This document shows, in pieces, positions 12,646 to 41,304 of a stretch of 64,000 nt of DNA. Origin of the DNA: Candidatus Latescibacterota bacterium (GTDB lineage: Bacteria; Latescibacterota; UBA2968; UBA8231). The stretch's first letter is position 1, and every line of letters begins with the position of its first letter. The translations under genes and the position numbers were made by a program. The stretch is from the NCBI GenBank assembly GCA_965248265.1, contig CBDFJF010000001.1:1344001-1408000 (forward strand), given 5' to 3'. The notes below the pieces were generated by a model. The model saw only the letters and a list, made by a program, of their open reading frames with translations, did no database searches and was not told the origin of the DNA.

Positions 12646-12683
12646 ATGCTTGTGGAACTTGGCGATCTCAGGAGTTGCAGGGG

Positions 12684-13484: not shown

Positions 13485-13519
13485 TTGTTCATCGGAGCAA
13501 TTTCCAGGAGACGGAGAGC

Positions 13520-18379: not shown

Positions 18380-18410
18380 GCCTGGCTCCCTGATTTTCCT
18401 CGTGATTTTG

Positions 18411-19472
18411 CTATGGTTTATTGCCCCGGCGGTTATCCATTGTCCGCGGGGTCAGATCGAAGAGCGTATCATGGCCGTTGAAGAAGCGCTCGAACTCATC
18501 GACCATGAGTTTGAACATCTGCGTGTAGCTGGAGGCCAGGACGCCCGCGATGTGCGGGCTCAGAAACACATTTTCCAACCGGGTGATCTCGTGGTCGCCG
18601 ACGGGCTCGGGATTGAAAACGTCCAATCCGGCGACCAGGCCGCCGCGTTTGAGCCGCGCCACGAGTGCGTCCGAGTCCACCACCGTACCCCGCGACACGT
18701 TGACTAAGACCCGGCCATCCGGGATCATGTCGAGCTCCCGCCGACCGATCATGCCGTCGGTGGCGGGAGTCTGTGGCACCAGCAAGACGATCACGTCGCA
18801 CTGGGTCAAAACGTTATCGAGCGAGGTCTTGAGAAAACCGACCGCGTCGGCCATCTCCGATCCCAGGTAGGGATCGTGGACCCAGACTTCCGTGTCGAAG
18901 GGTCGCAGCATCTGGATGAGCCGCCGGCCGATGTGACCGCAGCCGATCAGGCCGACCCGTTTGCCCGTCAATTCCCCATCCAAATAGCCCCGGTCGGTCC
19001 TGTCCGTGTACGACTCCATCCTGCCGGAGATGAGGCGGCGAAAATGCTGTCCCGCGTTGCGCAACGAAATGATGATGAGCGCCAACGCCCATTCCGCCAC
19101 CGGATAGGAGGAGCCGTTGGTCGTATCCACTGTGCGGATGCCCCGCTCCCAGGCCGCTTCCACGTCGATGCGGTTGGCGAAGCGATCACCCTCGAGCTCG
19201 CCGATGATTTTCAAACCGGGAGCCAGGTCCATCAGTCCGCTGTCGACGGGGGGAACACCGGAGGAAACGATCAGCCCGTTCAAATCGGGGAGACGCTCAC
19301 CGAGCCGGGCCACATCCTCGTCCTCTTGAACTTCGTAGATACCCCCCACCTCACACTCAAACAGATCCAGGTCGACGAAGCCCTTCAGACGCTCCAGTTC
19401 CCCAGCGTCCAGGTACTTCTCACGCACCTCGGCGTTTGAGGCTATCAGAACTTTGGGTCGGGCATCCCCCAT
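18411..19472 (-). CDS. D-isomer-specific 2-hydroxyacid dehydrogenase
   Basis: GLIGCGHIG, NVSRG, LDVF.PEP, SPHIAG. Confidence 0.9.
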   Translation of the reverse strand: MGDARPKVLIASNAEVREKYLDAGELERLKGFVDLDLFECEVGGIYEVQEDEDVARLGERLPDLNGLIVSSGVPPVDSGLMDLAPGLKIIGELEGDRFANRIDVEAAWERGIRTVDTTNGSSYPVAEWALALIIISLRNAGQHFRRLISGRMESYTDRTDRGYLDGELTGKRVGLIGCGHIGRRLIQMLRPFDTEVWVHDPYLGSEMADAVGFLKTSLDNVLTQCDVIVLLVPQTPATDGMIGRRELDMIPDGRVLVNVSRGTVVDSDALVARLKRGGLVAGLDVFNPEPVGDHEITRLENVFLSPHIAGVLASSYTQMFKLMVDEFERFFNGHDTLFDLTPRTMDNRRGNKP

Positions 19473-21563: not shown

Positions 21564-21646
21564 TGATTCCTCCAGTGTTCTTGCCTGCCGGCAACATGCC
21601 GCTGGGTTTCGATGTTTCGTTGCGGCCTCATCGATATGCGTGTGCA

Positions 21647-23653
21647 TCAACGCGCGGCCTGCAGGCGCAGCAACCTGCCACCGCCGGCCACCAGAGTCAC
21701 TTCCGCCCGCGACCCGTCCGAGACCGGGCGCCACTGCCGCGCCTGGGGATCGAACTCCTCCATGACTCCCGGGCCGACTATCGTCCTCGTGATCTCCTTC
21801 CCGTACTCCAGATTCACGACCAGCACGTGTGTGACCTCGTCCATAGACGAGTCCTCGTCCGTGAACGAGACCTCGCCGGTGGACGGGGAGAAGTAGCCCC
21901 AGAGGAGACCTTTTCTCCTGGTGCCAACCGTGAAAGGGGGATCGACCGTAAACGCAGCGTCGTCTGGCAGTTCATCGACAAACCCACCCGCTGGCTTTTG
22001 ACCTGTATGGTACACGGCGAGGGATGTCAGCGGCTGCAGCTGCTCGGCGACGGCGACGAACTCGGCGTGGTTTTGGCCCACCGCCTCGCCCAACGGAGTC
22101 AACGGCGCTGCCGCATCGGCTGCGGCACGCTCCTCCGTCCATTCGATGTCTTCGAATTCGGATATGCCTCCGTGGAAATCGGCGTAAGCCCAGTAGGTAA
22201 AATGCATGATGCCCTGACCGCCGTAGGCCAGCGTGGTGTAGCCCAGGTACCTGCTCTCGTCGCCTGTGGGCACGCGGTGGGTCTCGCTCAATGAAGCCGC
22301 TTGAATGACGTTGATGAAGGGAATGCCGCCGTAGAGAGCGGCCTCGCGTACCAGCGCCAGGTTCGTGAAGTACTGATTGCCGTCGTTGGTCGTGCGCAGG
22401 TTGTAGTGGTCATAGCTGATCAGGTCCGGCTTGACGATATCCACGAACTGACGCAGGTGCTCCCGGTAGGCTTCGATGAGGTCTCCGGACGTGCCCAGCG
22501 CCTCAGCACTGGCGTACGTCGGGAACAGGTTTATGTGCGATAAATGGGCGGGATCGCGCTCGCGGATGTACTCCACCAGCCTGGAGAACTCCGGAAATCT
22601 GACTGCGCTGGGCTCGTCGACGATTCTGTAGGAGTACAGGGCGGGATGGTCCTTCACCCTGTCGATGGCCGCGTCCATCGTCGCCTTGCGGTCCGGGTCG
22701 TCGAGGTAGCTGGGCTCTCTCAGGGCGTAATCGATCAAGTCCAGGCGTAATCCGTGCGCGTGGGCGACGTCGAGGTCTTCGACCGTGCTTCCCCAGGCCA
22801 GGGTAAACCCCCCGTCGACGAGCTTCTGGGCCATCCCGTGCGTCAGTGGACCCCATCGACCCCCTGCACCTCCGGGACCGTGGTAGTAGCCGACGATGGG
22901 AGTACCCAGCTGCCATTTGCGCTGCACGGTGAAATCGAGGACCGCGACTTCCCCCAGCACCAGGCCGCGCTGTTCGAATGGCACAATCCCCGGCTCGGTG
23001 ATGCTCACCCGATAGGTGGGCAGATCTTGCTGGACGACCACTTTGCCCATGGCTGTACCTGCTGGACCTGGTGCAGAAGGTCCTGCAGCCCCATCGCTGA
23101 GAACCATTTTTCTGGTTTTTTCACCAGAGCCGGCTGAAGTGAGTTTGTAGATGTATACGCCCGCCGCACTCCCCTGGCCAGAGTTATCCAGGCCGTCCCA
23201 GGTGATCGAATGAGACCCGGATTCCTGCCAGCCATCGACCAGGGTGCGCAACCGCTGTCCCAGATTGTTGTAGATCTCAACCCTGGTGTAACCGGGATCC
23301 GGGAGACTGTAGGTGATGACGGTGGAGGGGTTGAACGGATTCGGATAGTTCTGGTGCAACTGGAAAGACGAGGGCGTCGTTTCGTCTTCTGCTATCACTG
23401 TGGGAATTGGAGAATCAATCCGGTATCCACCCTCGTTGTCCGTGACATCACGGTACGCCTCAAATGGATCATCCTCGTTCGTGAAGGTGATCTCGGCCCC
23501 GGCAACGGGTTCATTGCCGGCCGTTTCCACGGTGCCCGAGACGACGATCCCGCCCCATACCGGAAGGCTGACCAGCCATACCAGAGCCTGGGACAGGAGA
23601 AATGGGCGGCAACATGGTTTTACCGAACGGTTATTGCAGATTGTCGTTCGCAT
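21647..23653 (-). CDS. Tandem paralog of 19623..21563 (family copy 2)
   Basis: Same architecture; 23120..23179 is identical to 21060..21119. Confidence 0.7.
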   Translation of the reverse strand: MRTTICNNRSVKPCCRPFLLSQALVWLVSLPVWGGIVVSGTVETAGNEPVAGAEITFTNEDDPFEAYRDVTDNEGGYRIDSPIPTVIAEDETTPSSFQLHQNYPNPFNPSTVITYSLPDPGYTRVEIYNNLGQRLRTLVDGWQESGSHSITWDGLDNSGQGSAAGVYIYKLTSAGSGEKTRKMVLSDGAAGPSAPGPAGTAMGKVVVQQDLPTYRVSITEPGIVPFEQRGLVLGEVAVLDFTVQRKWQLGTPIVGYYHGPGGAGGRWGPLTHGMAQKLVDGGFTLAWGSTVEDLDVAHAHGLRLDLIDYALREPSYLDDPDRKATMDAAIDRVKDHPALYSYRIVDEPSAVRFPEFSRLVEYIRERDPAHLSHINLFPTYASAEALGTSGDLIEAYREHLRQFVDIVKPDLISYDHYNLRTTNDGNQYFTNLALVREAALYGGIPFINVIQAASLSETHRVPTGDESRYLGYTTLAYGGQGIMHFTYWAYADFHGGISEFEDIEWTEERAAADAAAPLTPLGEAVGQNHAEFVAVAEQLQPLTSLAVYHTGQKPAGGFVDELPDDAAFTVDPPFTVGTRRKGLLWGYFSPSTGEVSFTDEDSSMDEVTHVLVVNLEYGKEITRTIVGPGVMEEFDPQARQWRPVSDGSRAEVTLVAGGGRLLRLQAAR

Positions 23654-28416: not shown

Positions 28417-29316
28417 GTGACGCAGGCCATTCCAACCGCAGTGCTGGGCCGCACCGGACTGAAAGTCACCCGGCTCGGGTTCGGCACCGCCATCAGAGGC
28501 AATCCCGACGACGAGCACTGGAACAAAGTGCTGAACTCGGTGCTGGACGCGGGGATCAACTTCATAGACACCGCCAACGACTATGGCGTTAACAAAGGAA
28601 ACCCGGCCGAAGAGCAGATCGGAAAACAGATCTCCGGACGCCGGTCGGAGTTCTACCTCGCTACCAAGTGTGGATGCCCTCCCGGGGGCGGCGAGCACAT
28701 CTGGACGCGGGAGAACGCCTTCCGGGGATTACACGAGAGCCTGGAGCGGATGCAGACCGACTACGTGGACGTGATGCAGTACCACAATCCCTCAGTTGAG
28801 GAATGCGAGGCTGGTGACTTGGTGGCCGTGCTCGAGGATATGCGCAAGCAGGGCAAGGTGCGCTGGATAGGCGTCTCGACGACGCTGCCACACCTGGCGA
28901 CGTTCCTCGAGTGGGGGGTGTTCGACGTCTTCCAGATCCCCTACTCCGCCCTGGAGCGGGAGCACGAAGAGTGGATCACCAGGTCCGCACAAGCGGGAAC
29001 CGGCATTGTCGTCCGCGGCGGGGTGGCCCAGGGCGAACCTGATGCCGCCGCGGGAGAGGGGCAGGTGAACAGGTGGAAGATGTTCGAGGCGAATCTCGAC
29101 GAGCTGGTCGATGAAGGGGAGAGCCGTACCACGTTCATGCTGCGGTATACCCTGACGCATCCCCACTGCGATACAACCATCGTGGGCACTACCCGCATCG
29201 ATCACCTCGAAGAGAACCTGGCTGGTGTCATGAAAGGACCACTCTCTCCCGACACCTACGCCGAGGCCAAGCGCCGCCTGGACGCCGCCGGTGAGAAACC
29301 CGAGGCGGTTGCGTAA
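28417..29316 (+). CDS. Aldo/keto reductase
   Basis: LGRTGLKVTRLGFG, GINFIDTANDY, ATK, GKVRWIGVS; GAGGAG RBS before GTG. Confidence 0.9.
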   Translation: MTQAIPTAVLGRTGLKVTRLGFGTAIRGNPDDEHWNKVLNSVLDAGINFIDTANDYGVNKGNPAEEQIGKQISGRRSEFYLATKCGCPPGGGEHIWTRENAFRGLHESLERMQTDYVDVMQYHNPSVEECEAGDLVAVLEDMRKQGKVRWIGVSTTLPHLATFLEWGVFDVFQIPYSALEREHEEWITRSAQAGTGIVVRGGVAQGEPDAAAGEGQVNRWKMFEANLDELVDEGESRTTFMLRYTLTHPHCDTTIVGTTRIDHLEENLAGVMKGPLSPDTYAEAKRRLDAAGEKPEAVA

Positions 29317-29337
29317 TCCTTCCCACTGGCGGGAACC

Positions 29338-31269
29338 CTACGGCGCAAATACCTGAAACCGCCCACCTTCACTTCCCCCGTCGACGACGTGGATCCGGCC
29401 TTGCGAGTCGACGACCATGTCGATAGCGGTCGGTGGTGAGACCTGGAATTCTCCCGGCGCGTCGCCGAATCTTCCCCATTTGGTGACAAAGCGTCGTTCC
29501 GTGTCTTGTGACCTGGCATCAAAGACCTGTAGCAGGCCGCGCGCCTCCATGACCATCAGTCTCGTGCTAGACGCGTCGAAGGCGATGACGAGGGGGTCGA
29601 GGGTTTCGCCGCTGTCGGGCCCGACGCCGTCGTCGAAGGTGCTGTCATTACCCCCGTAAATGGTGTCCGTGACCTTCGTCTTGGCGATGATGTGGTTGCG
29701 TTCGCGATCGGGGACGCTGAAGAAGAACTGGTCGTTGCCGCTGCCTGCCCCAGCCTCGGGCGCCCGGACGACGTGCTGAACTGGTATGCCCTGATCGGCG
29801 ATGAGCGTCTTCCGAATGAGATCGAGCGGACCCTCCACGTTCCCCTCGCTGTCACTGCGATACATGAACCCCTCGTAGTCTATCATCACAATTGACCCGT
29901 CCTCGTCTTCGTAGAGGCCGGCCGGAAATGCGCCGTCCGTATCGATCAGGCGGAACCACAGCTCCCGCCGATCGGTGTCGATGGCACCGAGGACGACGCT
30001 TTTGCTTACCGTGTCTGAAACAGCGGTGTAGACACGTCCGCCCGTATCGACTGCAAGCCGCACCGGGGAAAGGCGGTGAGGTATCAGGCTGTTGCCTTCC
30101 AGTCTCGAAAAGTAGGGTCGATACCCGTCACCCCCCGGAAACATGACCTGAACGCCCGCCTGCATCGCTCTGGCAGTGGTGGTCGAGATCGCCGACATGG
30201 CGATGTAGATATCATCCATCCCGTCCAGGGCAGCGCCGATCGCCTGCGCCTCGGAGTTGCTGATAGACTGGAGTTCCCGCGTCTCCACGAGCGGATAGAA
30301 AATGCCGCTTCGCTCTGGACTGGCGCTCGATATACCACCCTCCCATTCCGTGTGCACGACGACGCGGTAGAGGTACTCCGTGTTGCCGTCGAGGACGGTA
30401 TCCGTGTACGAGGTGATGGTCTGGGTTTCAAGTAGCTCCACGGGCACATTCAGCCCGCCTTCGACGCGCCGGTGCACCTCGTAGGCTTGGAACCTGGGCC
30501 CATCGTATTGTGACCACGCCAATTCGGCCGTGGCGGTTTCACTGCTCAATAAAAGGCTTTCGATGCGCACTGCTGGAATCTCATAGGAGATTTCGGCGCG
30601 GGCGCTCTCGAAGCCGGCGCCAAAGACGATGGTGTTGACCCAGTAGAAGTAGTCGGCGCCGGGGCGGGCGGTCGTGTCCGTCCAGGCGCTGGTCTCGACC
30701 TCAGGTATCGAGTCCAGCCGTGCTGTATCTTCGCCGAATGCACGGCGCCAAATCTCGTACCCGTCAAAACCCGGACCGATGTACGGGTCCCAGGTCAGCA
30801 CGATGTGCCCTGTTGCCGGGGAGTCAGCGATGGAGGTCAACTCGACACCGGTGACGGTAAACGACTGCACGGAAAGCGGTTCGCTGGGCACGCCAAAGCC
30901 CGCCGTGTTCACTACTTCGATCCAGTAGATGTAGTCCCGGTCCGGCCTGATTGACGTGTCGGCATACGCTGTCTGTGCTTGTTCGCCTAGGTGTGCGAGG
31001 GTATCAATCTCAACGAGTGTCTTCTCGCGGCGCATTACCAGGTACATGTGGAAATCGGTTTGCCCTTCGTACGGTGCCCATTCGATGAGCGCCACACCAG
31101 TGGAATCGCTGATCTGCGCGCGGACATCCTCGACTGGAGGCGTGAGCGCGGAGTCGAAGGGGTTTTCTCGCGAGGCGTCGTGGCACGATGCGAAGAGGCA
31201 TGCGACGATCATGAACGCGCTCGCGCGGACAGCGAAGTGCTGTCCCGTATGTGTCTGACCTGAGATCAT
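29338..31269 (-). CDS. Lipoprotein with three FN3-like repeats and an NHL-type beta-propeller
   Basis: Lipobox LFASC followed by RENPFD; three W..Y.G..F..Y...R..DT...Y.Y repeats; WGRFG...GEF..P....VDSQGRIHVVD. Confidence 0.7.
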   Translation of the reverse strand: MISGQTHTGQHFAVRASAFMIVACLFASCHDASRENPFDSALTPPVEDVRAQISDSTGVALIEWAPYEGQTDFHMYLVMRREKTLVEIDTLAHLGEQAQTAYADTSIRPDRDYIYWIEVVNTAGFGVPSEPLSVQSFTVTGVELTSIADSPATGHIVLTWDPYIGPGFDGYEIWRRAFGEDTARLDSIPEVETSAWTDTTARPGADYFYWVNTIVFGAGFESARAEISYEIPAVRIESLLLSSETATAELAWSQYDGPRFQAYEVHRRVEGGLNVPVELLETQTITSYTDTVLDGNTEYLYRVVVHTEWEGGISSASPERSGIFYPLVETRELQSISNSEAQAIGAALDGMDDIYIAMSAISTTTARAMQAGVQVMFPGGDGYRPYFSRLEGNSLIPHRLSPVRLAVDTGGRVYTAVSDTVSKSVVLGAIDTDRRELWFRLIDTDGAFPAGLYEDEDGSIVMIDYEGFMYRSDSEGNVEGPLDLIRKTLIADQGIPVQHVVRAPEAGAGSGNDQFFFSVPDRERNHIIAKTKVTDTIYGGNDSTFDDGVGPDSGETLDPLVIAFDASSTRLMVMEARGLLQVFDARSQDTERRFVTKWGRFGDAPGEFQVSPPTAIDMVVDSQGRIHVVDGGSEGGRFQVFAP

Positions 31270-31368
31270 TTGTTGGATACGGTATCGTTATGCGGAAGGA
31301 ATCATAAGTTCTCCGGCAATTGCCCGAGAAGCATACTGCCGTCGTCGTCGCCTGACAACACAACACCG

Positions 31369-31383
31369 GCAAACGACGTGCCA
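31369..31383 (-). promoter_or_regulatory. Sigma54 -24/-12 promoter for the FN3/NHL lipoprotein
   Basis: Minus strand TGGCACG-TCGT-TTGC matches the consensus, 100 bp upstream of the start at 31269. Confidence 0.85.
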
Positions 31384-31548
31384 GAGTCGGATTGATGCCC
31401 GTTCGCTGCCGCAGGCACGGGCGTTCGGCCACACGTCAATCTGCGGTCTGTTGAACCCAAATTCGTAAATTCGGTCGGAATTTATCACTATATTTTCTCC
31501 GTCGGGATTCGCTGGACTACAACGGGTGATTGGCGCGCTCTACAACGC

Positions 31549-33609
31549 ATGGCGAGAAACCCTTACCTGAACCGTTCCATGATCCGATCCGTCGATCAGT
31601 TCTTCGGCAGGAGCCGGGAAGTGGAACGCATAATGTCGCGCCTGGGCGCCGAACCACCGCAGTCGGTTTCGATCGTCGGGGCTCGCCGTGCGGGCAAGTC
31701 GTCCCTGCTTTGGCACATTGCCCAGAATGAGGTCTATGCCCGCTATCTGGACAAGCCTGAGCGCTACGCGTTCATATTTTTTGACTTTCAGGGACAACAA
31801 CATCTGGGTCAATCCGGTTTTTGCCGGGTCTTCGGCGAACATCTGAGTGCTGCCTGTGGAGACCGTTTTACAGTTCCAGCTCTTGACGATTTCGAGGGCA
31901 TGGAAGCAACCGTGCGCGATCTCAGCGCGCGGGGTCTTCAACTGGTATGTCTGTTCGACGAATTCGAAGCAGTAACCCGCAACCCCGGGTTTGGAGAGGA
32001 GTTCTTTGGTCTGCTGAGGGCGCTGGCCAACGCGCATTCGGTTGCCTTTGTAACCACTTCCCACCTCACGTTGCAGTCTCTGTGCCATACCAGTCAGATC
32101 TCCGAATCACCCTTCTTCAATATTTTCGCTGAATTAAAAATCGGACCGTTCAACGAAGCGGAGGTCAAGGAGCTCGTTGCCAAACCCTCAGCCAGTGCGG
32201 GGACGCCACTCTCGACCCACGAAGAAACGCTCGTGGATCTCAGCGGCCATCTGCCCCTATTCCTCCAGATTGCCTGTGCGGCCGCGTTCGAGTGTTTGAA
32301 TGAGAACCAGGACCATGAGCTGATCCACTCTCTCCTTGAGCAGCGCTTCATGGAGGAGGCAGTCTCTCACTTTCGATATATATGGGATCATTTCGATGAA
32401 GCTGAGCGGGAAACCGCTGTAATCCTGGCCGTCAATTCCACGCCCACGGCTGCCCTTTCTACGGTGCGCTCCCTCCTGGGAGACGGTTTCGTGCGCAATG
32501 TGCAGGGCCGGACCCGGCTTTTTTCGGCCTCGTTTTCCGCTTTCGCTAGAGAGCAGATGCCGGAGGTGCCGAAGGCGACCGCGGGCAGTATTCCATCGCC
32601 CCCATCCAGCCTCGAACCGCCCATGAGATCGGCGATCGACCCGGTAGCCGAAGAAGAAGATCCATTTCCGCAAATCGTGGGCCGCAGCATCGCCATCCGT
32701 CGCGTATTCGCCTTGATGCAAAAGGCCGTCGTCGCAGACGATACCGTCCTGCTCACGGGCGAGACCGGCACCGGCAAGGAACTGGTCGCCCGCTGTATTC
32801 ACGAGAGCAGCCGGCGCGGCAGCGGTCCTTTCGTTGCGGTGAACTGCGGCGCAATCGCCGAACACTTGCAGGAGAGCGAGTTGTTCGGTCATAAGAAGGG
32901 TGCATTCACCGATGCGGCCGCCGATCGCGAGGGATTGTTCGAAGCCGCTCATGAGGGCACGCTTTTTCTAGACGAGATCGGCGAGGTGGGCAGTGCCACC
33001 CAGGTCAAACTTCTGCGCGTTTTGCAGGAGGGGGAGATCCGCCGCGTGGGCGAGAATCACGCCCGCCAGGTGGATATCCGCCTCATTTGCGCCACCAACC
33101 GGAACCTTGAAGAAGAAGTAGAGGCGGGCCGATTCCGCCAGGATCTCTACTATCGCCTCTACGTAATCGCGCTCGAGCTTCCGGCCCTGCGCGATCGCAC
33201 GTCAGATATCCGCCTGTTGGTGGACAGCTTTCTGGCGGAGTATCCGGCGGGCACAACCGAGGATGCAGTGACCCATCTAAATGGTTACTCTTGGCCTGGA
33301 AACATTCGCGAGCTGGAAAATCAGCTTGCCAGCGCCCGCGCGATGGCAGGGGGCGATGCGATCCGTCCCCAACATCTGTGGCCCCGATTGCAGCTGGCCG
33401 CTGCCGAAGATGTCAACGTTGGTGGCTTCCGCACCGAGCTGACCAATTCCCTCTCCTTCAAAGAGGCTCGGGAGCAATTCGAAAGAGACTTGATCCAGTC
33501 ACGGCTGGAGAGACATGATTGGGAGATCGGCGCGGCGGCCGAGGCGCTGGATATCTCGCGGAGTCGACTATACGAGCTCGTGAAGCGCCACGGATTGAAG
33601 CGAGAGTGA
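31549..33609 (+). CDS. STAND-like ATPase fused to a sigma54 enhancer-binding AAA+ domain and Fis HTH
   Basis: N-terminal NPY..FFGR, GARRAGKS, LFDEFE; C-terminal GETGTGKE, ESELFGHKKGAFTDA, LFLDEIGE, FRQDLYYRL, WPGNIRELEN, HTH. Confidence 0.9.
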   Translation: MARNPYLNRSMIRSVDQFFGRSREVERIMSRLGAEPPQSVSIVGARRAGKSSLLWHIAQNEVYARYLDKPERYAFIFFDFQGQQHLGQSGFCRVFGEHLSAACGDRFTVPALDDFEGMEATVRDLSARGLQLVCLFDEFEAVTRNPGFGEEFFGLLRALANAHSVAFVTTSHLTLQSLCHTSQISESPFFNIFAELKIGPFNEAEVKELVAKPSASAGTPLSTHEETLVDLSGHLPLFLQIACAAAFECLNENQDHELIHSLLEQRFMEEAVSHFRYIWDHFDEAERETAVILAVNSTPTAALSTVRSLLGDGFVRNVQGRTRLFSASFSAFAREQMPEVPKATAGSIPSPPSSLEPPMRSAIDPVAEEEDPFPQIVGRSIAIRRVFALMQKAVVADDTVLLTGETGTGKELVARCIHESSRRGSGPFVAVNCGAIAEHLQESELFGHKKGAFTDAAADREGLFEAAHEGTLFLDEIGEVGSATQVKLLRVLQEGEIRRVGENHARQVDIRLICATNRNLEEEVEAGRFRQDLYYRLYVIALELPALRDRTSDIRLLVDSFLAEYPAGTTEDAVTHLNGYSWPGNIRELENQLASARAMAGGDAIRPQHLWPRLQLAAAEDVNVGGFRTELTNSLSFKEAREQFERDLIQSRLERHDWEIGAAAEALDISRSRLYELVKRHGLKRE

Positions 33610-33776
33610 TATCCGCTCTGCGTCACGCGTCCGGAAAACAGGATTTCCGACCTGAATCCGTCTTGAATCCCGGACAGCTGAACTGACCCTCGCCGATTTT
33701 CCCGTCCATCCATTTTTCTCTAAGTTACAATGAAAATTCGACGTTACGTATCATGGGCGTCTTTCGGGACTTGCGG

Positions 33777-33791
33777 TGGCACGGCCATTGC
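33777..33791 (+). promoter_or_regulatory. Sigma54 -24/-12 promoter for the ATPase-PEGA operon
   Basis: TGGCACG-GCCA-TTGC matches the consensus; an AT-rich tract lies upstream. Confidence 0.88.
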
Positions 33792-33865
33792 GATAGAGAA
33801 CCCGGAGGCAGTCCGTTGATGCCAGATTGGACTCCAAACTTGAAAAAACTTCACTGAAGTGGAAT

Positions 33866-36208
33866 ATGGCACCCTCTCAACAAACCGGTGAGTTCAGTCC
33901 CATTTCGCCGAACCCGTTTATTACGGGCAATCCAGTACGTGATCCCAGCCTCTTCTTCGGGCGGGAGGACGATTTCGCCCACGTGCGCCAACGCCTCATC
34001 GCCGAGTCGGAAGGCATCGTGATGCTGTTCGTCGGCGAGCGGCGCAGCGGCAAGACCTCCATCATGTTCCAGATCCTGGATGGTCGCCTGGGCGAGGAGT
34101 TCCTGCCGATCTTCATCGACATGCAACAGATCGCCGGTATTACGGGGGACAACGACCTGCTGGGACGCATCGCCGAGTTCACCATCGAGCAGATCGATGA
34201 CCAGCGGCTGGTAGTTGAGTACTACGACTTTGCTCAAGGGAATCCCGTACTCACGTTCGACCGGTTGCTGGACGATATCCGCCAGATCTTCCCAGACAAG
34301 CGCCTGGTTTTTCTGGTAGACGAGGCGGAGATCCTGCAAGCCAAGGAAATGCGTGAGGAGATCACCAGCGCCGCCGTGATGTACCTCTCCAATATCCTCG
34401 AGAGTCGGAATGTGTCGTTCTGCTTCACCGGTTCCAGCGGTCTGGCCGACTCAGGCAGTACGGGCTGGCGTCGCTTGATCAGCAAGGGGGAAGCACGGGA
34501 GATCACCTTCCTGAGCAAGACCGATACCCTGCGTCTGATACAGCATCCCGTTGAGGGGCGCGTACACTACGGAGAGGGGGTGGTCGACTCGATTTACGAC
34601 CTCACTTTCGGCCATCCGTTCTACACCCAGGTGATTTGCACCAACGTCGTGGACTATCTCAATGAAGCGCAGAAAAACGATTTGAGTGTGGAAGGTCTGC
34701 AGGACGTCGTGCGCACGATCATCGACAACCCACCCCCGCAGATGGTGTACGCCTGGGACGAATTGAGTGACACGGACAGGCTTTCTCTTTCGCTGTTGAG
34801 CGAGGAGAGCGACGAGGCCGTTCTGGTAAAGCCGCAGGAACTCTTTGAGAAAATTAGTGAAAACAATTATCCACTGCAGCTGAAGTCGGATGCGTTGCAC
34901 AAGTCGCTGGAGGATCTTTACGCACACAAGGTGCTGGAACGGGACGACGAAGGAGGATATCGGTTCAGGGTCGATCTCTTTCGCCAGTGGATCCGGCGGG
35001 CCCGCTCCATCTGGAGCCTGGTAGAAGAGCAAGCCCCGCACAAGGGTCGGCAGGCGGTCTGGGCCGGCGCTGGTGTCGTCGCTTTCGCACTCGCAGCTAC
35101 GCTGGGATACTGGCTTTCCGGATCAACGGATAGTGAAACTTCAGCTGGAGTTACCCCGCCTGCGCTGGAGAAGGGCCGCATGTGGGTCGAATCGGACCTG
35201 CGCGAGGTGCAGGTTCTCGTAAACGGCGTGGAACGAGCCTCGAGAGCGCCTGTAATGATTTCCGATCTGCAACCGGGGAATTACAAAGTCGAGGTGAAGA
35301 AACCGAAGTTTCACACCTGGAGTCGTGAGGTAGCCATCCATGCGGGGCAAACCGACAGTCTTCAGGTCGATCTGGTGCGCCAGACCGGATCCCTCAGCGT
35401 GCGCTCCCAACCGGCAGGGGTGTTGGTACAGATCGAAGGCGAGCTCGACACCAGCGCAGTCACTCCCATCGAAGAACTGGCTCTGCCAACAGGGGGTTAC
35501 CAGGTTTTGATGAGACAGCAAGGATACGTCGAACAACGCCGCACAGTGGTTATCGACGATGGCGCCCCCGTGGAGGTGCAGTTCCAGCTGCGCGCCCGGG
35601 TGGGCAACATCTATGTCGAATCACAACCACGAGGTGCCCTGATCCTGCTCGATGGCAAGTCTACCGGCTTGAAGTCGCCTGCGCTTCTGCAAGGCCAACC
35701 GGTAGGTCGCCACAACGTCGGACTGCGGCTTGCCGACTATCAAACCACCGACAAACAAATCGACGTCGCTCTGGGGCAGACGGACACGGTGCGTTGGAGT
35801 TTGACGTTAAACCCCGCCCAAATCCAGATAACCAGTGTCCCCCCGGGCGCGGATATCCTCATCGATGGAAAAACGCATGGCCAGACGCCGGCCGGAATTC
35901 AACTCGAGCCGGGCCGATATCGGTTGCAGCTCGTACTGGAAGGTTACGAGCCCCACGAATTAGAGCAGGAGCTTCAGCCGGGCCAGTCCTACGAACCGCG
36001 GATCACTCTTGTGCCCCAGTACGGTTGGTTGCGAATCGTGAAACCCCTCTTCGGCACGGTGGTCATCAATGGCTCCGACGAACACACGGTGCCACCGGGT
36101 GATATACAGCTGCAAGTAGGCGCCTATAGCATCGCGAGCAAAGGGAATACCCAATCCACGAAGGTTACCGTCACCAAGGGTGATACAGTAAAGGTCTCAT
36201 TGCCATGA
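33866..36208 (+). CDS. STAND-like ATPase + TM helix + 4-5 PEGA repeats
   Basis: NPFITGNPV..FFGRE, GERRSGKTS, LVDEAE, GHPFYTQ; TM AVWAGAGVVAFALAATLGYWL; PEGA repeats (V.SQP.GA.I.LDG). Start could be TTG at 33827. Confidence 0.85.
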   Translation: MAPSQQTGEFSPISPNPFITGNPVRDPSLFFGREDDFAHVRQRLIAESEGIVMLFVGERRSGKTSIMFQILDGRLGEEFLPIFIDMQQIAGITGDNDLLGRIAEFTIEQIDDQRLVVEYYDFAQGNPVLTFDRLLDDIRQIFPDKRLVFLVDEAEILQAKEMREEITSAAVMYLSNILESRNVSFCFTGSSGLADSGSTGWRRLISKGEAREITFLSKTDTLRLIQHPVEGRVHYGEGVVDSIYDLTFGHPFYTQVICTNVVDYLNEAQKNDLSVEGLQDVVRTIIDNPPPQMVYAWDELSDTDRLSLSLLSEESDEAVLVKPQELFEKISENNYPLQLKSDALHKSLEDLYAHKVLERDDEGGYRFRVDLFRQWIRRARSIWSLVEEQAPHKGRQAVWAGAGVVAFALAATLGYWLSGSTDSETSAGVTPPALEKGRMWVESDLREVQVLVNGVERASRAPVMISDLQPGNYKVEVKKPKFHTWSREVAIHAGQTDSLQVDLVRQTGSLSVRSQPAGVLVQIEGELDTSAVTPIEELALPTGGYQVLMRQQGYVEQRRTVVIDDGAPVEVQFQLRARVGNIYVESQPRGALILLDGKSTGLKSPALLQGQPVGRHNVGLRLADYQTTDKQIDVALGQTDTVRWSLTLNPAQIQITSVPPGADILIDGKTHGQTPAGIQLEPGRYRLQLVLEGYEPHELEQELQPGQSYEPRITLVPQYGWLRIVKPLFGTVVINGSDEHTVPPGDIQLQVGAYSIASKGNTQSTKVTVTKGDTVKVSLP

Positions 36209-37002
36209 AAAATTCTCGAAGGGTGGGTACAGTTGTCGCAGCCGTGGTAATGGTCGCCACTCCGCTTTTGAGCCAGGATTCGCCGTTGCAAAAAGCGATT
36301 GCTCAATTTTACGAGGGGGAATGGGAAGGATCGATTGGCGCGATGAACGTGTTGCTTGCGGATGACTCGATGGCGCTCGACGAACAATCGATGGCACGAA
36401 AATTCGTCGCCCTTGGTTACATACTCCTGGGACGGGACGCGGAAGCCGTGTCAGTCTACAAACAGATCGTTCGCGATGATCCGTCTTTTGACATGGACGC
36501 ATTGTCCATAGAGGGAGGGGAGACCCCGGAGGCAGCAGTCCGTTTCTTTGGCCAGGCGATATTGGAGGTGCGTCAGGAAGACATGCGGACTCGGGAAGCT
36601 CAGCTGGCGCGGACCTCGCGCCGAAGCGCGCTGCTGCGTTCCGCCCTGCTACCTGGATGGGGCCAACGCTATCAGGGGTACCGGGGCCGCAGTTTTGTGA
36701 TGATGGGGGGCATGGCGGCGGCGGCCATTTACGCCGTCTCCACGGAGCGCGCCTACCGGACGGCCAAAGATGACTACGAAATGGCGCGTCCTGGTGCCGA
36801 TTTCGAAAACCTGTTCGACGAGTACACCCGCAAGGCAGACCAGTCCGATGTGGCCATCGGCATTCTTGGGGCGGTCTGGCTGTACAATGTGCTGGATACG
36901 GTTTTTCAGGGGCCGAATATCGAACGTCCCAGCGGCGGCTTATTCCTGTGGAACGGGCCCGGTGAACAGGGCCTGCGCATGAGTTACAGAGTGAGATTCT
37001 AA
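36205..37002 (+). CDS. Secreted TPR-like + DUF5683-type envelope protein
   Basis: Signal peptide; helical TPR-like N-terminus; SALLPGWGQRY motif; C-terminal Phe; ATGA overlap with the upstream gene. Confidence 0.65.
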   Translation: MKNSRRVGTVVAAVVMVATPLLSQDSPLQKAIAQFYEGEWEGSIGAMNVLLADDSMALDEQSMARKFVALGYILLGRDAEAVSVYKQIVRDDPSFDMDALSIEGGETPEAAVRFFGQAILEVRQEDMRTREAQLARTSRRSALLRSALLPGWGQRYQGYRGRSFVMMGGMAAAAIYAVSTERAYRTAKDDYEMARPGADFENLFDEYTRKADQSDVAIGILGAVWLYNVLDTVFQGPNIERPSGGLFLWNGPGEQGLRMSYRVRF

Positions 37003-37020
37003 GGAGAAAGCGGGTCGAAC

Positions 37021-38046
37021 GTGGAAAACCCATACGTACACACTCGTCCCATCGAGGGCAACAATGAATTCTACAACCGCACGTCCGAGATCATGCGGAT
37101 CTCCTCTCGGGTGGCGGCGGACCGGCCACAGTCGGTCTCCATCGTTGGTGAACCGGGCATCGGTAAGACCTCACTACTGAACTGGCTGTGCGATCCGACC
37201 TCCCAAGCAGAGTATCTCGACGAGCCCGACTCGTACGTGATGCTGCTACTCAGCCTCGAGAAAAATTCTCCCGAGAATCCCGAAGCGTTCTTTGGCCTCG
37301 TGCAAACCGCTCTCGACGCGGCCGATCGCGGATCGATGAAGCCCAACTACGACGGATTCAACGATCTGGTGAAACGGTTGATGCAGGAAAAGAAAAAGCT
37401 GGTTCTGTTCTGCGATGACTTCGGAGCCGTAACCCAGCACCAGGATTTTCCACTGGACTTCTTCTCCTTCATGCGCTCCTTGGCCAACAGCCACGATGTT
37501 GGATATGTGACCACTTCTTCGGGACCCTTGCAGAAGTTGTGTCACACCCAGGATATCGAGGAGTCGCCCTTCTTCAACATCTTCACCACCGTTAATCTCG
37601 AGGCTTTCAAGGCCGAAGAAGCCCGGCGCCTCGTGGAGGAACCAGCCCGGGCGGCGGGTCGACCGTTCGAGCAGGAGACCGAATGGGTGCTGGATCTGGG
37701 GGGCAACCTCCCTTACCTGTTGCAGGCCACGGCCAGCATCGCCTTCGATGTTCGCATCAACGGATCTATTGAGCAAGAAGACCTGCGCGACGCCGCCGCC
37801 AGGGAGGTGAAGGGATACCTCGAAGCCCTGTGGGAAGATGCGTTTACCGAGGCGGAGCAGGAGGTCCTGCGCCGCCTCTCTGGTGGCAAACCGGTGGAAC
37901 GCCGCCTGGAGTTTGCCGCCGAGGCATTGGAACGCAGTGGTCATCTGCGTAGAGCCGGCTCCGACTACGAGATCGCCGCGGGTCTGCTTGCCCGCTTTGT
38001 CAAGGATCACAGCAGCGGCGGTTTTCTGAAACGGTTGTTCGGCTGA
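37021..38046 (+). CDS. Stand-alone STAND-like ATPase with amphipathic C-terminal tail
   Basis: NPY, GEPGIGKTS, LFCDDF, SPFFNIF; ends in GGFLKRLFG. Confidence 0.8.
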   Translation: MENPYVHTRPIEGNNEFYNRTSEIMRISSRVAADRPQSVSIVGEPGIGKTSLLNWLCDPTSQAEYLDEPDSYVMLLLSLEKNSPENPEAFFGLVQTALDAADRGSMKPNYDGFNDLVKRLMQEKKKLVLFCDDFGAVTQHQDFPLDFFSFMRSLANSHDVGYVTTSSGPLQKLCHTQDIEESPFFNIFTTVNLEAFKAEEARRLVEEPARAAGRPFEQETEWVLDLGGNLPYLLQATASIAFDVRINGSIEQEDLRDAAAREVKGYLEALWEDAFTEAEQEVLRRLSGGKPVERRLEFAAEALERSGHLRRAGSDYEIAAGLLARFVKDHSSGGFLKRLFG

Positions 38047-38055
38047 GGGATCCAT

Positions 38056-39846
38056 TTGAAAATCCCGCGCAATCCCTATCTAAACCGCTCGATGATCCGT
38101 GCGCCCAGCATGTTCTACGGGCGTCGCAAGGAAGTGATGCGTCTGGCGTCGCGCATCGGGGCGGATCCACCCCAGTCGGTGGCGATCGTCGGGGACCGCC
38201 GCATTGGCAAGTCTTCCCTGTTGTCCTACATCGCTCATCCAGACATCGTTGCGGATTATCTGGACGATCCCGACAAGGCACTGTTTCTGTTCATGGATTT
38301 TCAGGAGGAGCTGCGCCTGAGCATTGCGGGATTCATCGAATCAGTGTTTCGCCATCTGCAAGGCCAACTGCCGGTATTGATCCCGCAGGATCCGACCCCA
38401 GACCATCTGCGGGAGCTGGTGGCACAACTCCATCGGGATGGCTACCGGCTCATCCTGCTTCTGGATGAGTTCGATCGCTTAACGCGCAGCTCGAACTTCG
38501 ATGCCGACTTCTTCGCCCATCTGCGCTCACTCTCTGGGCATTTCAACATCGCCTTCGTCACTTCCACCAGCCGCGATCTGCAGAAGCTCTGTCGCACTCA
38601 AGAGATCTCCGATTCACCTTTTTTCAACATCTTTTCCACCGTTTATCTAGGACCGCTGGAATCCGACGAGGCGGTCGCCCTCATTCGCGAGCCGTCTGGA
38701 TCGACCCCGTTTCCGCTTGAACAATACATGGATATGATTCTCGAACTCGGTGGTCATTTCCCGTTCTTCCTCCAAATGGCTTGCTCCGCCGCCTTCGAGG
38801 TGTTGGTCGAAGAGGGTGAATGCATTCGCGAGCGCGTCGAGGCCCGATTTTTGGAAGAAGCCAGTCCTCATTTTCAATTTTACTGGGAGCAGATGGGAGC
38901 AGTGGACCGAGCACTTTGCAATCAGATGGCCATTGAAGGCGAAGTGGATATGGCGAGCTCGGAATGCCAGGAGCTGCAGCGTCGCGGCTTCGCCCTGGAG
39001 AAGGGGCGGCTCTTCTCCACCGCGTTTGCCAACTTCGTCCGGGAATCCTACGAGCGTGAAATCGGCGAGGTGCCCTTGGAAGTCCAGGCTGAGCGTGCAC
39101 GGAGCATGGAGGAGGAGCTTGACCGTGCGCGAGAGATGCAGATGGGACTTCTGCCCCAGAAAAGTCCTCAAACCGATGGGTTCGACCTGGCGGGACGGTG
39201 TGAACCGGCAACGCAGGTTGGGGGCGATTTCTACACCTACGTCTGGCTCGATGAGGCTCACACCAGGCTGGCCATCGTCGCCGTGGACGTCATGGGGCAC
39301 GGAATGCAGGGTGCCGTGACCGCGCTGCGATTCAGCGAAACACTTCGCTACGAAGTAAGGGAATGCGGCGATGCGGTGAAATTGCTGAGTGCTCTGAACC
39401 GGGCGCTATGCGGAACGCTCAAAAGTGGCGAGTTCGTCGGTTGCTGTGTCGCTGTCTTGGACGTGACCGAGCGCCGTCTCGACGTGGCGGTGGCTGGGTA
39501 CCATCCCCCCCTGCACTACGAGGCTGAAGCGGGAATGGTGAGGGAACTCGAGTTGGGCAATCTGCCCTTGGGAATCAAGGAGGATACCGACTACGTGGGC
39601 ACCTCGTTCAAGTTGAACAAGGATGACCGGTTGCTGTTCTACTCGGATGGGGTGATCGAGGCGCAGGACGACAGACAAGTGTTATACGGCGAGGAGCGCA
39701 TACAGGAACTGCTGTTGCAGAGTACGCGGGAAGGGTTGGACTCGGAGGCGCTGTTGGACCGACTGTACTGGGACGTGGGACGATTCTCGGCGAGCACGGG
39801 ACAGCAGGATGATACAACCTCGATCGCCGTGCGCGTGACGCGCTAG
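38056..39846 (+). CDS. STAND-like ATPase fused to a PP2C/SpoIIE (RsbU-type) phosphatase
   Basis: GDRRIGKSS, LLDEFD, SPFFNIF; GGDFY, DVMGHG, YSDGVIEA, QDDTT. Confidence 0.9.
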   Translation: MKIPRNPYLNRSMIRAPSMFYGRRKEVMRLASRIGADPPQSVAIVGDRRIGKSSLLSYIAHPDIVADYLDDPDKALFLFMDFQEELRLSIAGFIESVFRHLQGQLPVLIPQDPTPDHLRELVAQLHRDGYRLILLLDEFDRLTRSSNFDADFFAHLRSLSGHFNIAFVTSTSRDLQKLCRTQEISDSPFFNIFSTVYLGPLESDEAVALIREPSGSTPFPLEQYMDMILELGGHFPFFLQMACSAAFEVLVEEGECIRERVEARFLEEASPHFQFYWEQMGAVDRALCNQMAIEGEVDMASSECQELQRRGFALEKGRLFSTAFANFVRESYEREIGEVPLEVQAERARSMEEELDRAREMQMGLLPQKSPQTDGFDLAGRCEPATQVGGDFYTYVWLDEAHTRLAIVAVDVMGHGMQGAVTALRFSETLRYEVRECGDAVKLLSALNRALCGTLKSGEFVGCCVAVLDVTERRLDVAVAGYHPPLHYEAEAGMVRELELGNLPLGIKEDTDYVGTSFKLNKDDRLLFYSDGVIEAQDDRQVLYGEERIQELLLQSTREGLDSEALLDRLYWDVGRFSASTGQQDDTTSIAVRVTR

Positions 39847-39927
39847 GGGGCCGAATCATATGAGCGCTCGATGCCGACGCCATTGGACACTGAGCGCGGG
39901 CGGGTTTCTCTTGCCGTGCGGGGGTAG

Positions 39928-41304
39928 TTAGGGAGTCTCCTGCAGCCGCAGAAGCTTGCCGCCCCCGGCCACCAGGTTCAGCTCCACCCGCGACCCGTCC
40001 GAAGCCGGGCGCCACTGCCGTTCCTCGGTGTCGAACTCTTCCAGCGCTCCCGGGCCGACTACCGTCGTCGTGATCGCTTGTGAATGGTCCAGGTTCACGA
40101 CCAGGACGTGTGTTGTCTCGCCGGTTGATCCGAAGTAGCCCCAGAGGACGCCCTTCTCCTGCTGTGGATCGAAAGACGGATCCACGGAAAACTCCGCGTC
40201 GGCCGGAAGTGCATCCACGGTCCAGGCGCCCACGGGCGCTTGCCCGGAGTGATACACGGCGAGGGAAGTCAGCGGTTGCAGCTGTTGTGCTACGGCGACG
40301 AACTCGGGATGAATTTGACGCAGGGCCTCGCCAAGCGGGGTCAGTGGCGCCGCCACGTCGGCCGCGGCGCGTTCCGCGTTCCACTCGACGTCCTCGAACG
40401 CTGAAATGCCCCCGTAGAAGTCACTGTAGGCCCAGTAGGTGAACTGCATGATGCCCTGGCCGCCGTAGGCGAGCGTCGTGTAGGCCAGGTACCTGCTCTC
40501 ATCGCTGTTGGGCGCACGGTGGCGCTCACCCACTGAAACAGCCTCCACCACGTTGATGAAGGGAATGCCTCCGTTCAGGGCTGCCTCACGCACCAGCGCC
40601 AGGTTCATGAAGTAGGTGTTGCTCGCATGCAGGTTTGCACCTGCCTCGTCGTCCGTGTAGAGGCTGTAGTGATCGTAGCTGATCAGGTCCGGCTTCACCA
40701 CCTGGACGAACTGACGCAGGTGTTCTCTGTAGGCTGTTTCCGTATCGCCTGCGGTACCCAGCGCCGCGGCACTTGCGTACGTCGGGAACAGGTTTATGTG
40801 CGATACATGGGCGGGATCACGCTCGCGGATGTAGTCGACGATCCTGGCGAGCTCTGGAAACCTGACCGCGCTGGGTTCGTCGACGATTCTGTAGGAATAA
40901 AGAGCGGGATGGTCCTTCACGCTGTCGATGACCGAGTCGATCCGCGCCCTGGCTATCGGGTCGTCCAGGTTAGCGGGCTCTCTCAGGTCCTGGGCGATCA
41001 GGTCTAGCCGCAGCCCGTGTGCATGGGCGACGTCGAGGTCTTCGACCGTACTTCCCCAGGCCAGGGTGAACCCCCCGTCGACCAGTTTTCGGGCCATCCC
41101 GGGTGTCAGCGGGCCAAATCGAGTATCGATTCCGCCTCCGGGGCCGTGGTAATAGCCGACAATCGGTGTTCCGATCTCCCACACGCTGACCTCCGGTTGT
41201 TGCTGGCTCGCCTTGGTCAAGAAACCGGCACACCCCGGGGCAAAAAGGCAAAGAAGGCAGATCCCCCCCATACGAACGGCGCCTGCGATGCCGCGCGCGT
41301 TCAT
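39928..41304 (-). CDS. TIM-barrel glycosidase-like lipoprotein (family copy 3)
   Basis: ATGA-coupled to the upstream paralog; lipobox-like APGC; WEIGTPIVGYYHGPG, DEPS. Confidence 0.7.
   Translation of the reverse strand: MNARGIAGAVRMGGICLLCLFAPGCAGFLTKASQQQPEVSVWEIGTPIVGYYHGPGGGIDTRFGPLTPGMARKLVDGGFTLAWGSTVEDLDVAHAHGLRLDLIAQDLREPANLDDPIARARIDSVIDSVKDHPALYSYRIVDEPSAVRFPELARIVDYIRERDPAHVSHINLFPTYASAAALGTAGDTETAYREHLRQFVQVVKPDLISYDHYSLYTDDEAGANLHASNTYFMNLALVREAALNGGIPFINVVEAVSVGERHRAPNSDESRYLAYTTLAYGGQGIMQFTYWAYSDFYGGISAFEDVEWNAERAAADVAAPLTPLGEALRQIHPEFVAVAQQLQPLTSLAVYHSGQAPVGAWTVDALPADAEFSVDPSFDPQQEKGVLWGYFGSTGETTHVLVVNLDHSQAITTTVVGPGALEEFDTEERQWRPASDGSRVELNLVAGGGKLLRLQETP

Follow-up and report, generated by a model that had tools for sequence, protein, structure and literature searches.

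A sigma-54 activator with an N-terminal nSTAND2 ATPase in a Latescibacterota genome, and its possible place in a multi-STAND transmembrane module

Sigma-54 activators are the textbook case of signal-controlled assembly of an AAA+ ring, and they carry many kinds of regulatory domain. A gene of Candidatus Latescibacterota bacterium, found at 31549..33609 (+) of a 64,000-nucleotide stretch of DNA (assembly GCA_965248265.1, contig CBDFJF010000001.1, positions 1,344,001 to 1,408,000; hereafter the window, with a G+C content of ~60%), raises the question of how such an activator is controlled when its regulatory position is taken by a second ATPase, of the STAND class (signal transduction ATPases that have numerous domains). 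An earlier note, made from the letters of this DNA, had proposed that oligomerisation of the first ATPase, dependent on a nucleotide or a partner, gates assembly of the second. Our analysis suggests that the gene encodes a working sigma-54 enhancer-binding protein in which an nSTAND2-type STAND occupies the site usual for a receiver (REC), GAF, PAS or V4R domain. We give about an even chance to the reading that a multi-STAND transmembrane module acts on transcription through this activator, co-oligomerisation of STAND ATPases gating assembly of the AAA+ ring.

The activator gene (P0001) is an uninterrupted open reading frame (ORF) encoding 686 amino acids (aa) plus a stop codon. Pfam recognised nSTAND2 (PF20702) at residues 36-295 (E 2.6e-38; 132.4 bits against a cut-off of 24), Sigma54_activat (PF00158) at residues 376-542 (E 5.6e-69), AAA_lid_14 at residues 548-619 and HTH_8 at residues 641-676 (E 9.8e-8; 32 bits against a cut-off of 22). 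Combined with structural modelling, these matches delimit an nSTAND2 module at residues 1-336 (31549..32556, +), made of a P-loop domain, a helical lid and a winged helix, in which Walker A reads GARRAGKS (residues 44-51; 31678..31701, +) and Walker B reads VCLFDEFE (residues 133-140; 31945..31968, +). By composition and model confidence the next 38 residues (338-375; 32560..32673, +), with 10 Pro and 5 Ser, form a flexible linker. The sigma-54 AAA+ core and lid follow at residues 376-619 (32674..33405, +), as placed by Pfam, alignment with ZraR and motifs, and hold GAFTDA (residues 451-456; 32899..32916, +), a variant of the L1-loop motif GAFTGA that contacts sigma-54; the C-terminal DNA-binding domain is a Fis-type helix-turn-helix (HTH; 33469..33576, +). 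The earlier note had listed a STAND-like ATPase, a Pro/Ser linker, an intact enhancer-binding core with GAFTDA and an HTH; each of these motifs is where it should be, and Pfam confirms the architecture. Pfam recognised no sensor or repeat domain in the activator, in which the C-terminal side of the STAND is given over to the sigma-54 core and the HTH. Nor was there a Response_reg match at E up to 1, so that the activator lacks the receiver by which an NtrC-type response regulator is defined. From these features we would class the protein as a sigma-54 activator and a STAND regulator at once, a new variant of two known kinds.

The start of the protein is likely to be ATG 31549, because the first 24 residues carry a motif that is kept in relatives (N4, P5, R9, M11, I12, R13, F18, G20 and R21). 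The public gene call (P0002, 662 aa) begins at a GTG 24 codons downstream and loses the conserved RNPYLNRSMIR...FxGR. Relatives were collected in two ways. A search with residues 1-360 against a collection of 5.8 billion proteins returned 94 clusters, one of which is the window's own protein; and the best 80 of 308 confirmed tblastn matches to the activator, one genome per species, were taken as loci for comparison of gene neighbourhoods. An artefact of gene fusion, assembly or frameshift was rejected: of the 93 non-self clusters 36 have the same architecture, as do six genome loci, which belong to two phyla.

The model of residues 1-360, built with AlphaFold2 (AF2) from 67 aligned sequences, had a predicted local distance difference test score (pLDDT) of 93.4 and a predicted template modelling score (pTM) of 0.88. 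Strands and helices occupy residues 22-198, helices residues 203-294 and the winged helix residues 303-335, after which the pLDDT drops to 67 and then 52 in the final two 10-residue blocks, which belong to the disordered linker. No solved structure matched the N-terminus by sequence. By Foldseek, the nearest solved folds were the archaeal Walker ATPase 2qen (E 2e-11), Orc1/Cdc6 (2qby), SSO1545 (2fna) and subunits of the origin recognition complex (ORC). PF01637-type archaeal ATPases are among the structural neighbours; NLRC4, the plant NLR Sr35 and MalT (8bob) stood lower in the list. Across an alignment of 70 nSTAND2 relatives G44, G49, K50 and D137 are invariant, E138 is nearly so, and R21, R157 and an SPFFNIF block are invariant or nearly so; among fusion proteins the domain is 50-72% identical. 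By its model and structural neighbours the module is a genuine STAND ATPase of the nucleotide-binding oligomerisation domain (NOD) type. The same conservation, of Walker A and B and of R21, R157 and SPFFNIF, bears on the idea that the N-terminal ATPase is inactive and persists as a relic or scaffold, a passive dimerisation or docking domain. A stand-alone paralogue in the window does have DD in place of DE in its Walker B and sits on a long branch; set against the constancy of the motifs and the identity among fusion proteins, we consider this idea extremely improbable.

STANDs are described as tripartite proteins that typically have their own sensor domain, and STAND modules generally act as assembly switches (PMC13581612). 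The activator departs from this layout, in that its NTPase has no adjoining sensor of its own that Pfam would recognise.

The second ATPase looks conventional. Its core carries Walker A (GETGTGKE) at residue 404, Walker B (DEIG) at 475 and RQDLYYR at 530, and aligns over its full length with ZraR (1ojl), the closest solved core (E 6.2e-68). No NCBIfam equivalog reached its cut-off, the best being NifA with 318.5 bits against 528.85, and every NCBIfam match began at residue 359 or later, those of NtrC-type models from about residue 368. Since these models stay below cut-off and align only from residue 359, the protein is a sigma-54 activator with a generic core, and its N-terminus is one that the named NCBIfam activator families do not have. 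Orthology to a named activator (NifA, NorR, RtcR, PrdR, AtoC, NtrC and others) was considered and rejected, all of these scoring under their NCBIfam cut-offs.

A doubt raised by the earlier note was that GAFTDA might be unable to activate sigma-54. Among the 36 fusion clusters the L1 motif reads GAFTDA in 21, GSFTDA in 6, GAFTGA in 4, GSFTGA in 4 and GSFTGS in 1, so that the fifth position is Asp in 27 of 36 and Gly in the other 9, and the two alternate among close relatives. Variation of this sort has precedents elsewhere: a survey of Desulfovibrio vulgaris activators counts GAFTDA among the variants expected to stay active, and assigns a regulon to DVU2106, which carries it (PMC4641369), and for VfmH of Dickeya, with the same change, the effect is given as unknown by the authors (PMC10714721). 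The alternation of Asp and Gly in the family, the precedent of DVU2106 and the sigma-54 promoters that flank the gene make it most likely that the GAFTDA variant is functional. The doubt is thereby largely removed, and we reject as unlikely the alternative of a dead variant, GAFTDA being the majority form of the family and a known natural variant outside it.

Which promoters might this activator serve? The exact sigma-54 (-24/-12) consensus TGGCAC-N5-TTGC occurs twice in the window, relative to 0.10 expected, and none of 100 shuffles gave two; both copies flank the activator gene. One (33777..33791, +) lies 35-75 nt before the gene of a membrane receptor and heads what we call the receptor operon. 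The other (31369..31383, -) lies ~100 nt upstream of ATG 31269, the start of a divergent gene for an fn3/NHL lipoprotein. The first promoter is kept in all five related loci that hold the receptor gene, with no mismatch in L001, L002 and L008 and one in L007 and L009. The activator gene stands upstream of this promoter and outside the operon. At 100-150 nt upstream of the receptor-operon promoter across loci are imperfect 16-bp palindromes of the form GTCyGG-N4-CnGGAC, which in the window occupy 33629-33644 and 33660-33675, within a conserved block aligned with L001 and L002. Two copies ~30 bp apart are present in the window, L001, L002, L008 and L009 and one clear copy in L007, and the palindrome is also found upstream of a third promoter in L001. 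Positional conservation makes these palindromes candidate activator sites. An inverted-repeat search of the two intergenic regions gave one palindrome only, at 31309-31330 in the fn3 leader, and scans of 29200-40200 gave one sigma-70 promoter-like site (3.3 expected) and nine terminator-like sites (9.2 expected).

The genes behind these promoters are themselves rich in STAND ATPases. The receptor gene (33866..36208, +, with TTG 33827 as an alternative start) encodes a protein of 780-793 aa, in which Pfam, hydrophobicity and hhalign distinguish an N-terminal STAND-like ATPase of 400 residues with intact GERRSGKT and LVDEAE motifs, one hydrophobic, presumably transmembrane (TM), helix and four PEGA repeats. 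Its ATPase is a distant relative of the nSTAND2 domains of the window (hhalign probability 97%, E 6.5e-11). No dedicated Pfam model covers this ATPase; of 48 homologues, AAA_14 matched 44, ATPase_2 matched 42 and nSTAND2 only 7. The next gene (36205..37002, +) encodes a DUF5683 protein that has a signal-like segment at its N-terminus and a hydrophobic helix at its C-terminus. It is followed by a stand-alone nSTAND2 ATPase of 341 aa (37021..38046, +; Pfam E 1.1e-35), with GEPGIGKT and FCDDFG motifs and no output domain, and by a fusion of nSTAND2 (E 4.5e-42) to a SpoIIE-type PP2C phosphatase (E 5.3e-41) at 38056..39846 (+). All four STAND modules of the cluster, the three nSTAND2 paralogues among them, have intact Walker motifs, A and B alike. 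On the other side, the divergent gene (29338..31269, -) encodes a lipoprotein-like protein with fn3 and NHL repeats and a lipobox-like LFASC, and is likely a member of the regulon. Candidate partners for the N-terminal ATPase of the activator, namely the receptor STAND and two further nSTAND2 proteins, are thus encoded in one sigma-54-driven operon.

The arrangement is conserved. The full fusion was found in six loci, L001 and L002 being Latescibacterota metagenome-assembled genomes (MAGs) at 72% and 71% identity, L003 a record labelled Gemmatimonas phototrophica at 61%, and L007, L008 and L009 other Gemmatimonadota MAGs. A gene order that runs from the activator through the PEGA receptor and DUF5683 to the stand-alone nSTAND2 is maintained in L001, L002, L007 and L008, with the nSTAND2-PP2C gene coming next in L002 and L008; in L009 the contig stops inside the receptor gene. 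L001, L002 and L008 also have a homologue of the fn3 gene, in varying position.

Some features of these relatives may be recorded here for their own sake. The activator and receptor genes of L001, a MAG with a complete chromosome, seem to be broken by frame changes into several tblastn pieces (10001-14804 and 16666-17177), which could be due to long-read indel errors or real decay. L001 also lacks the nSTAND2-PP2C gene, and some 20-40 kb away on the same chromosome is L004. Between the STAND operon and the fn3 gene there is, in relatives, a gene for P0235, a small coiled-coil protein of ~98 aa in which RFD motifs recur and the C-terminus holds a hydrophobic helix; a sigma-54-type promoter stands before this gene in L001, L002 and L003. 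It lies at 18290-18586 (-) in L002, with the promoter at 18679-18694 (-), and at 16680-16964 (-) in L001, with the promoter at 17057-17072 (-); homologues occur in L003 and L004, and tblastn at E up to 1 found none in the window. The protein is probably a further member of the regulon in these relatives.

The association of a receptor-type STAND with an nSTAND2 protein extends well beyond the fusion. In 59 of the 80 loci a receptor-type STAND is encoded on the strand of the nSTAND2 gene, in 48 of them within 1.5 kb; L053 had matched the AAA+ core only. A hydrophobic segment lies directly between the STAND and the rest of the protein in 53 of the 54 receptor-type ORFs examined, and neither Walker A nor Walker B varies among 48 receptor-type STANDs. 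The sensor parts, sampled by a Pfam scan of 13 of the 61 receptor ORF pieces, comprise PEGA repeats (4), a Reg_prop propeller with CarboxypepD_reg (4), Peripla_BP_6 (3) and nothing recognisable (2). Outputs were counted on the 78 of 89 nSTAND2 ORFs whose extension is 120 aa or longer: 65 have a Ser/Thr protein kinase domain (Pkinase), three of these with a cyclase as well, 6 have Sigma54, one SpoIIE, one a cyclase alone, and 5 no Pfam family. The nSTAND2 module is found on either side of kinases, and a stand-alone nSTAND2 accompanies the receptor/nSTAND2 pair also in L019, L030 and L069. The MAGs that show the pairing bear, among others, the labels Acidobacteriota, Latescibacterota, Gemmatimonadota and Calditrichota. 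At the level of gene content the recurrent pattern is clear, with a membrane-anchored STAND bearing a predicted extracytoplasmic sensor adjoining a cytoplasmic nSTAND2 with a signalling output. In one locus (L027, 5359-7545) the place of a soluble sensor domain before the receptor-type STAND is taken by some ten hydrophobic segments, which suggests a polytopic membrane sensor version.

The nature of these outputs also bears on a role in defence. Kaur et al. 2021, who defined the nSTAND2 family, describe a mobile operon with a constant core of two genes. Each encodes a STAND NTPase, and in one of the two proteins the NTP-binding motifs are eroded and a GT4 or HEPN effector is attached; the two are predicted to assemble into a toroidal hetero-multimer and to act as a counter-invader system (PMC8195603). 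By extension, the STAND pair here would sense an invader and the activator would turn on defence genes. The present cluster shares with that system PF20702 membership and an operon partner that is also a STAND NTPase; it differs in that all STAND Walker motifs are intact, those of the receptor-type partner being invariant and not eroded, that the partner is a membrane receptor, and that the outputs are signalling domains (PMC8195603). The variable parts of the partners are extracytoplasmic sensors beyond a TM helix, toxic effectors are missing from the outputs, which comprise kinases and cyclases as well as a phosphatase and a transcription activator, and the putative regulon is made of envelope proteins. 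In PADLOC-DB 2.0 the receptor, DUF5683, stand-alone nSTAND2 and fn3 proteins, four of the six examined, had no match; the activator was matched by RtcR/PspF-type models on its core (residues 368-683, E 1.1e-105) and weakly by mad8 on its N-terminus (4.9e-6), and the nSTAND2-PP2C protein by a single weak model, PDC-S27 (E 3.7e-4). On this balance a counter-invader function seems quite improbable for the present locus.

Does the receptor STAND then bind the activator? A complex was predicted from the receptor STAND (392 aa, 48 aligned rows), activator residues 1-340 (67 aligned rows) and two ATP molecules. The score was 0.60 (runs of 0.62, 0.60 and 0.58) compared to 0.00 for the best control, a weak pass of a mark that 116 of 157 solved complexes reach, as do 2 of 215 mismatched pairs; only 18 of the 157, and both of these mismatches, have values of at most 0.60. 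At least 86% of contacts were common to the runs, and partner pLDDT was at least 84. A ring-shaped heteromer of the two STAND proteins in nSTAND2 operons had been put forward independently (Kaur et al. 2021, PMC8195603). Together with the operon partners and the sensorless N-terminus, the prediction makes the gating by a first ATPase that the earlier note had proposed plausible, and the scheme can be sharpened by bringing in the receptor. With signalling domains as outputs and no sensor in the activator, it is economical to suppose that the sensor acts in trans. The activator has an ATPase without a sensor, and the receptor has a sensor and an ATPase without an output, so that the tripartite STAND layout would be divided among two or more proteins, with STAND-STAND co-assembly as their means of communication.

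The steps would be as follows. The receptor, with its cytoplasmic STAND, TM helix and extracytoplasmic PEGA repeats, would sense an envelope or external cue. ATP-dependent STAND-STAND co-assembly would then recruit the nSTAND2 of the activator, the PP2C phosphatase and the output-less nSTAND2. Clustering of activators through their N-terminal modules, with the 38-residue linker in between, would help the AAA+ ring to form on the GTCyGG-N4-CnGGAC sites, and the ring would remodel sigma-54 RNA polymerase at the two promoters, raising expression of the receptor operon, in positive feedback, and of the surface lipoprotein. In this scheme the domains, the intact motifs, the promoters, the gene order and the wide pairing of receptor STAND with nSTAND2 come from computation, and the co-assembly, its activating direction, the signal and the binding sites are what we infer.

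Several points weigh against the scheme. Binding of receptor to activator is weakly suggested, by gene order and by the complex prediction, and the pass of that prediction may reflect a general AAA+/STAND likeness, as in ORC/Cdc6 heteromers, the two chains being distant paralogues of ring-forming ATPases. The ring of a STAND assembly need not equal that of an AAA+ activator in size, and the sign of control could be negative instead. In the window alone the palindrome shows no enrichment, with 24 matches at up to two mismatches where 18.8 are expected, and the region upstream of the fn3 promoter has only a poor copy of it. The gene for sigma-54, rpoN, does not lie within the window. As to the pairing, the 80 loci are biased to relatives of the activator, and 20 of them have no receptor-type STAND, 7 of these with less than 3.5 kb of upstream sequence and 13 with at least 8 kb. 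Finally, L003 has the fusion and no receptor-type STAND within about 10 kb, its neighbours being a PPC/cohesin/FlgD_ig protein, three FG-GAP/UnbV_ASPIC/FlgD_ig proteins and small coiled-coil membrane proteins.

The case of L003 speaks for an autonomous switch, in which the nSTAND2 of the activator would self-oligomerise on ATP, perhaps together with a small cytoplasmic ligand, as MalT does, and the neighbouring STANDs would be mere products of the regulon. The intact Walker motifs and the presence of MalT (8bob) among the structural neighbours agree with this, as does the position of the activator gene outside the operon it controls and upstream of its sigma-54 promoter. Against it, Pfam found no sensor or repeat domain in the activator, whereas STANDs typically have a sensor (PMC13581612); further, the pairing of receptor STAND and nSTAND2 in 59 of 80 loci from several phyla, and more weakly the predicted heteromer, point to a partner. 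We regard the autonomous switch as unlikely.

The sign of control leads to another alternative, in which the nSTAND2 module holds the AAA+ core inactive until ATP or a partner relieves it, so that oligomerisation of the first ATPase would not be what assembles the ring. Intramolecular repression is common in sigma-54 activators, the receiver domains of NtrC1 and DctD acting in this way, and the long flexible linker would let the N-terminal module dock back on the core. The GAF domain of NorR is a further example, described as repressing intramolecularly (PMC2941729). Conversely, STAND modules are generally assembly switches (PMC13581612), and the fusion of nSTAND2 to either side of kinases, and to cyclases and phosphatases, fits a generic role in proximity or assembly better than a specific inhibitory surface. 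Repression by the N-terminal module is, in our judgement, not probable, and activation by co-assembly with the receptor STAND is the reading that we carry forward.

How does such a system relate to those already known? With the NtrC/ZraR family the activator has in common an AAA+ domain with Walker A/B, a GAFTGA-type loop and an RxDLxYR region, a C-terminal Fis-type HTH, and sigma-54 promoters and candidate upstream sites adjoining its gene; it differs in having no receiver, GAF, PAS, V4R or other customary regulatory domain and, as its N-terminus, a second P-loop ATPase of the STAND class. PspF, controlled by its partner PspA, and RtcR (CARF-AAA-HTH), with its unusual N-terminal CARF module, resemble it in their manner of control, but the N-terminus here is an ATPase and not a CARF domain, and the cluster has no PspA-like gene. 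MalT, which multimerises in response to ATP and inducer, likewise couples a STAND ATPase to a DNA-binding transcription output and is among the structural neighbours of the module. Unlike the activator, MalT and the other STAND transcription activators, AfsR/SARP and GutR, have their own C-terminal sensor repeats, bind DNA through LuxR or winged-helix domains and serve the sigma-70 polymerase; the activator is sensorless, and its output is a second ATPase motor specific for sigma-54. The actinobacterial STAND-linked Ser/Thr kinases and adenylate cyclases, such as PknK and Rv0386-type proteins, are single proteins with their own TPR or LuxR domains. They too fuse a STAND-class ATPase to a signalling output, and a kinase is the commonest nSTAND2 fusion here (65 of 78); we know of no paired membrane receptor STAND described for them.

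In the literature covered, which did not include subscription-only papers, we found no description of a STAND-sigma-54 fusion or of receptor-STAND/nSTAND2 signalling. The text of Kaur et al. 2021 had no relevant passage on sigma-54, PEGA, PP2C or enhancer (PMC8195603), and a 2025 survey of sigma-54 regulons, in its text and 11 supplements, had no nSTAND, PF20702, AAA_16 or NACHT (PMC12316311). The conserved multi-STAND module may be an unrecognised signalling scheme, and the breadth of the pairing suggests one that is widespread and absent from current catalogues of bacterial signal transduction. A larger reading, which we offer tentatively and hold as possible rather than probable, is that the locus exemplifies an undescribed class of transmembrane signalling, in which a receptor STAND with an extracytoplasmic PEGA, beta-propeller or periplasmic-binding sensor would co-oligomerise, driven by ATP, with nSTAND2 transducers bearing kinase, cyclase, PP2C or sigma-54 outputs, and in which the STAND ring would template the AAA+ ring that opens sigma-54 promoters. 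If this were true, an inflammasome-like logic would serve routine envelope sensing in parallel to two-component and Hanks-kinase systems, NLR-type assembly switches would be linked to sigma-54 transcription, the gating of one oligomerising ATPase by another would be a new principle of control for sigma-54 activators, and the defence-only reading of the nSTAND2 family would have to be revised. The system is compact and testable: it has two promoters and a candidate operator motif, and its four ATPase modules offer clear point mutants.

The fusion itself is rarer than ordinary activators and yet not unique to the host genome. Where a source was named, the 36 clusters that combine nSTAND2 with Sigma54_activat came from Latescibacterota and Gemmatimonadota MAGs; in other clusters nSTAND2 was joined to DUF4384, SpoIIE/PP2C, TPR, FliM/N, protein kinase, Trans_reg_C, CHAT or Pfam-less C-termini, and three further clusters had a source label of adenylate cyclase. 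In a representative library clustered at 50%, of which the best 150 of 183,867 matches were inspected, so that the count is a lower bound, both domains occurred in few representatives: P0050, P0062 (a truncated protein), P0101, P0125 and P0127. P0103, in the same set, has an AAA_35-type N-terminus, and seven others (P0098, P0099, P0102, P0104, P0105, P0107 and P0109), which scored high, carry two or three tandem Sigma54_activat domains per chain, with FHA domains as well in P0099; they may be multi-ring activators or chimeras of assembly.

In a tree of the nSTAND2 domain all 25 fusion rows fell in one well-supported clade of 49 rows, within which a non-fusion clade is nested. The fusion label needs three changes on this tree, of which the starred branches force only one, so that a single origin of the fusion is possible. 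The PP2C-fused and stand-alone nSTAND2 domains of the window fall elsewhere, so that these paralogues of the window are of old date and not recent copies. The closest non-fusion relatives (L004, L005 and L006; P0012, P0017, P0020 and similar) have C-termini of 200-560 aa, Pfam-less or with DUF4384/TPR, and no receptor STAND nearby.

Other genes of the window deserve brief mention. Just upstream of the cluster are paralogues of ~700 aa with CarboxypepD_reg and FlgD_ig domains (19623-21734, -, and 21647-23653, -); the FlgD_ig tail is common to them and to the large surface proteins beside the activator in L003, and they may be secreted cargo tied to the same regulon. Near the beginning of the window, tandem DUF4838 paralogues of ~865 aa each (1493-4081, -, and 4143-6749, -) lie beside a DUF6785/DUF6784 protein (42-1490, +) that runs past the window start. 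An orphan single-domain response regulator of 151 aa, with Response_reg only, is encoded at 59960-60415 (-) between ORFs without a Pfam match, and at 62051-62977 (+) there is an aminoglycoside 3-N-acetyltransferase family domain (Antibiotic_NAT, E 4.8e-40) in this environmental-type genome.

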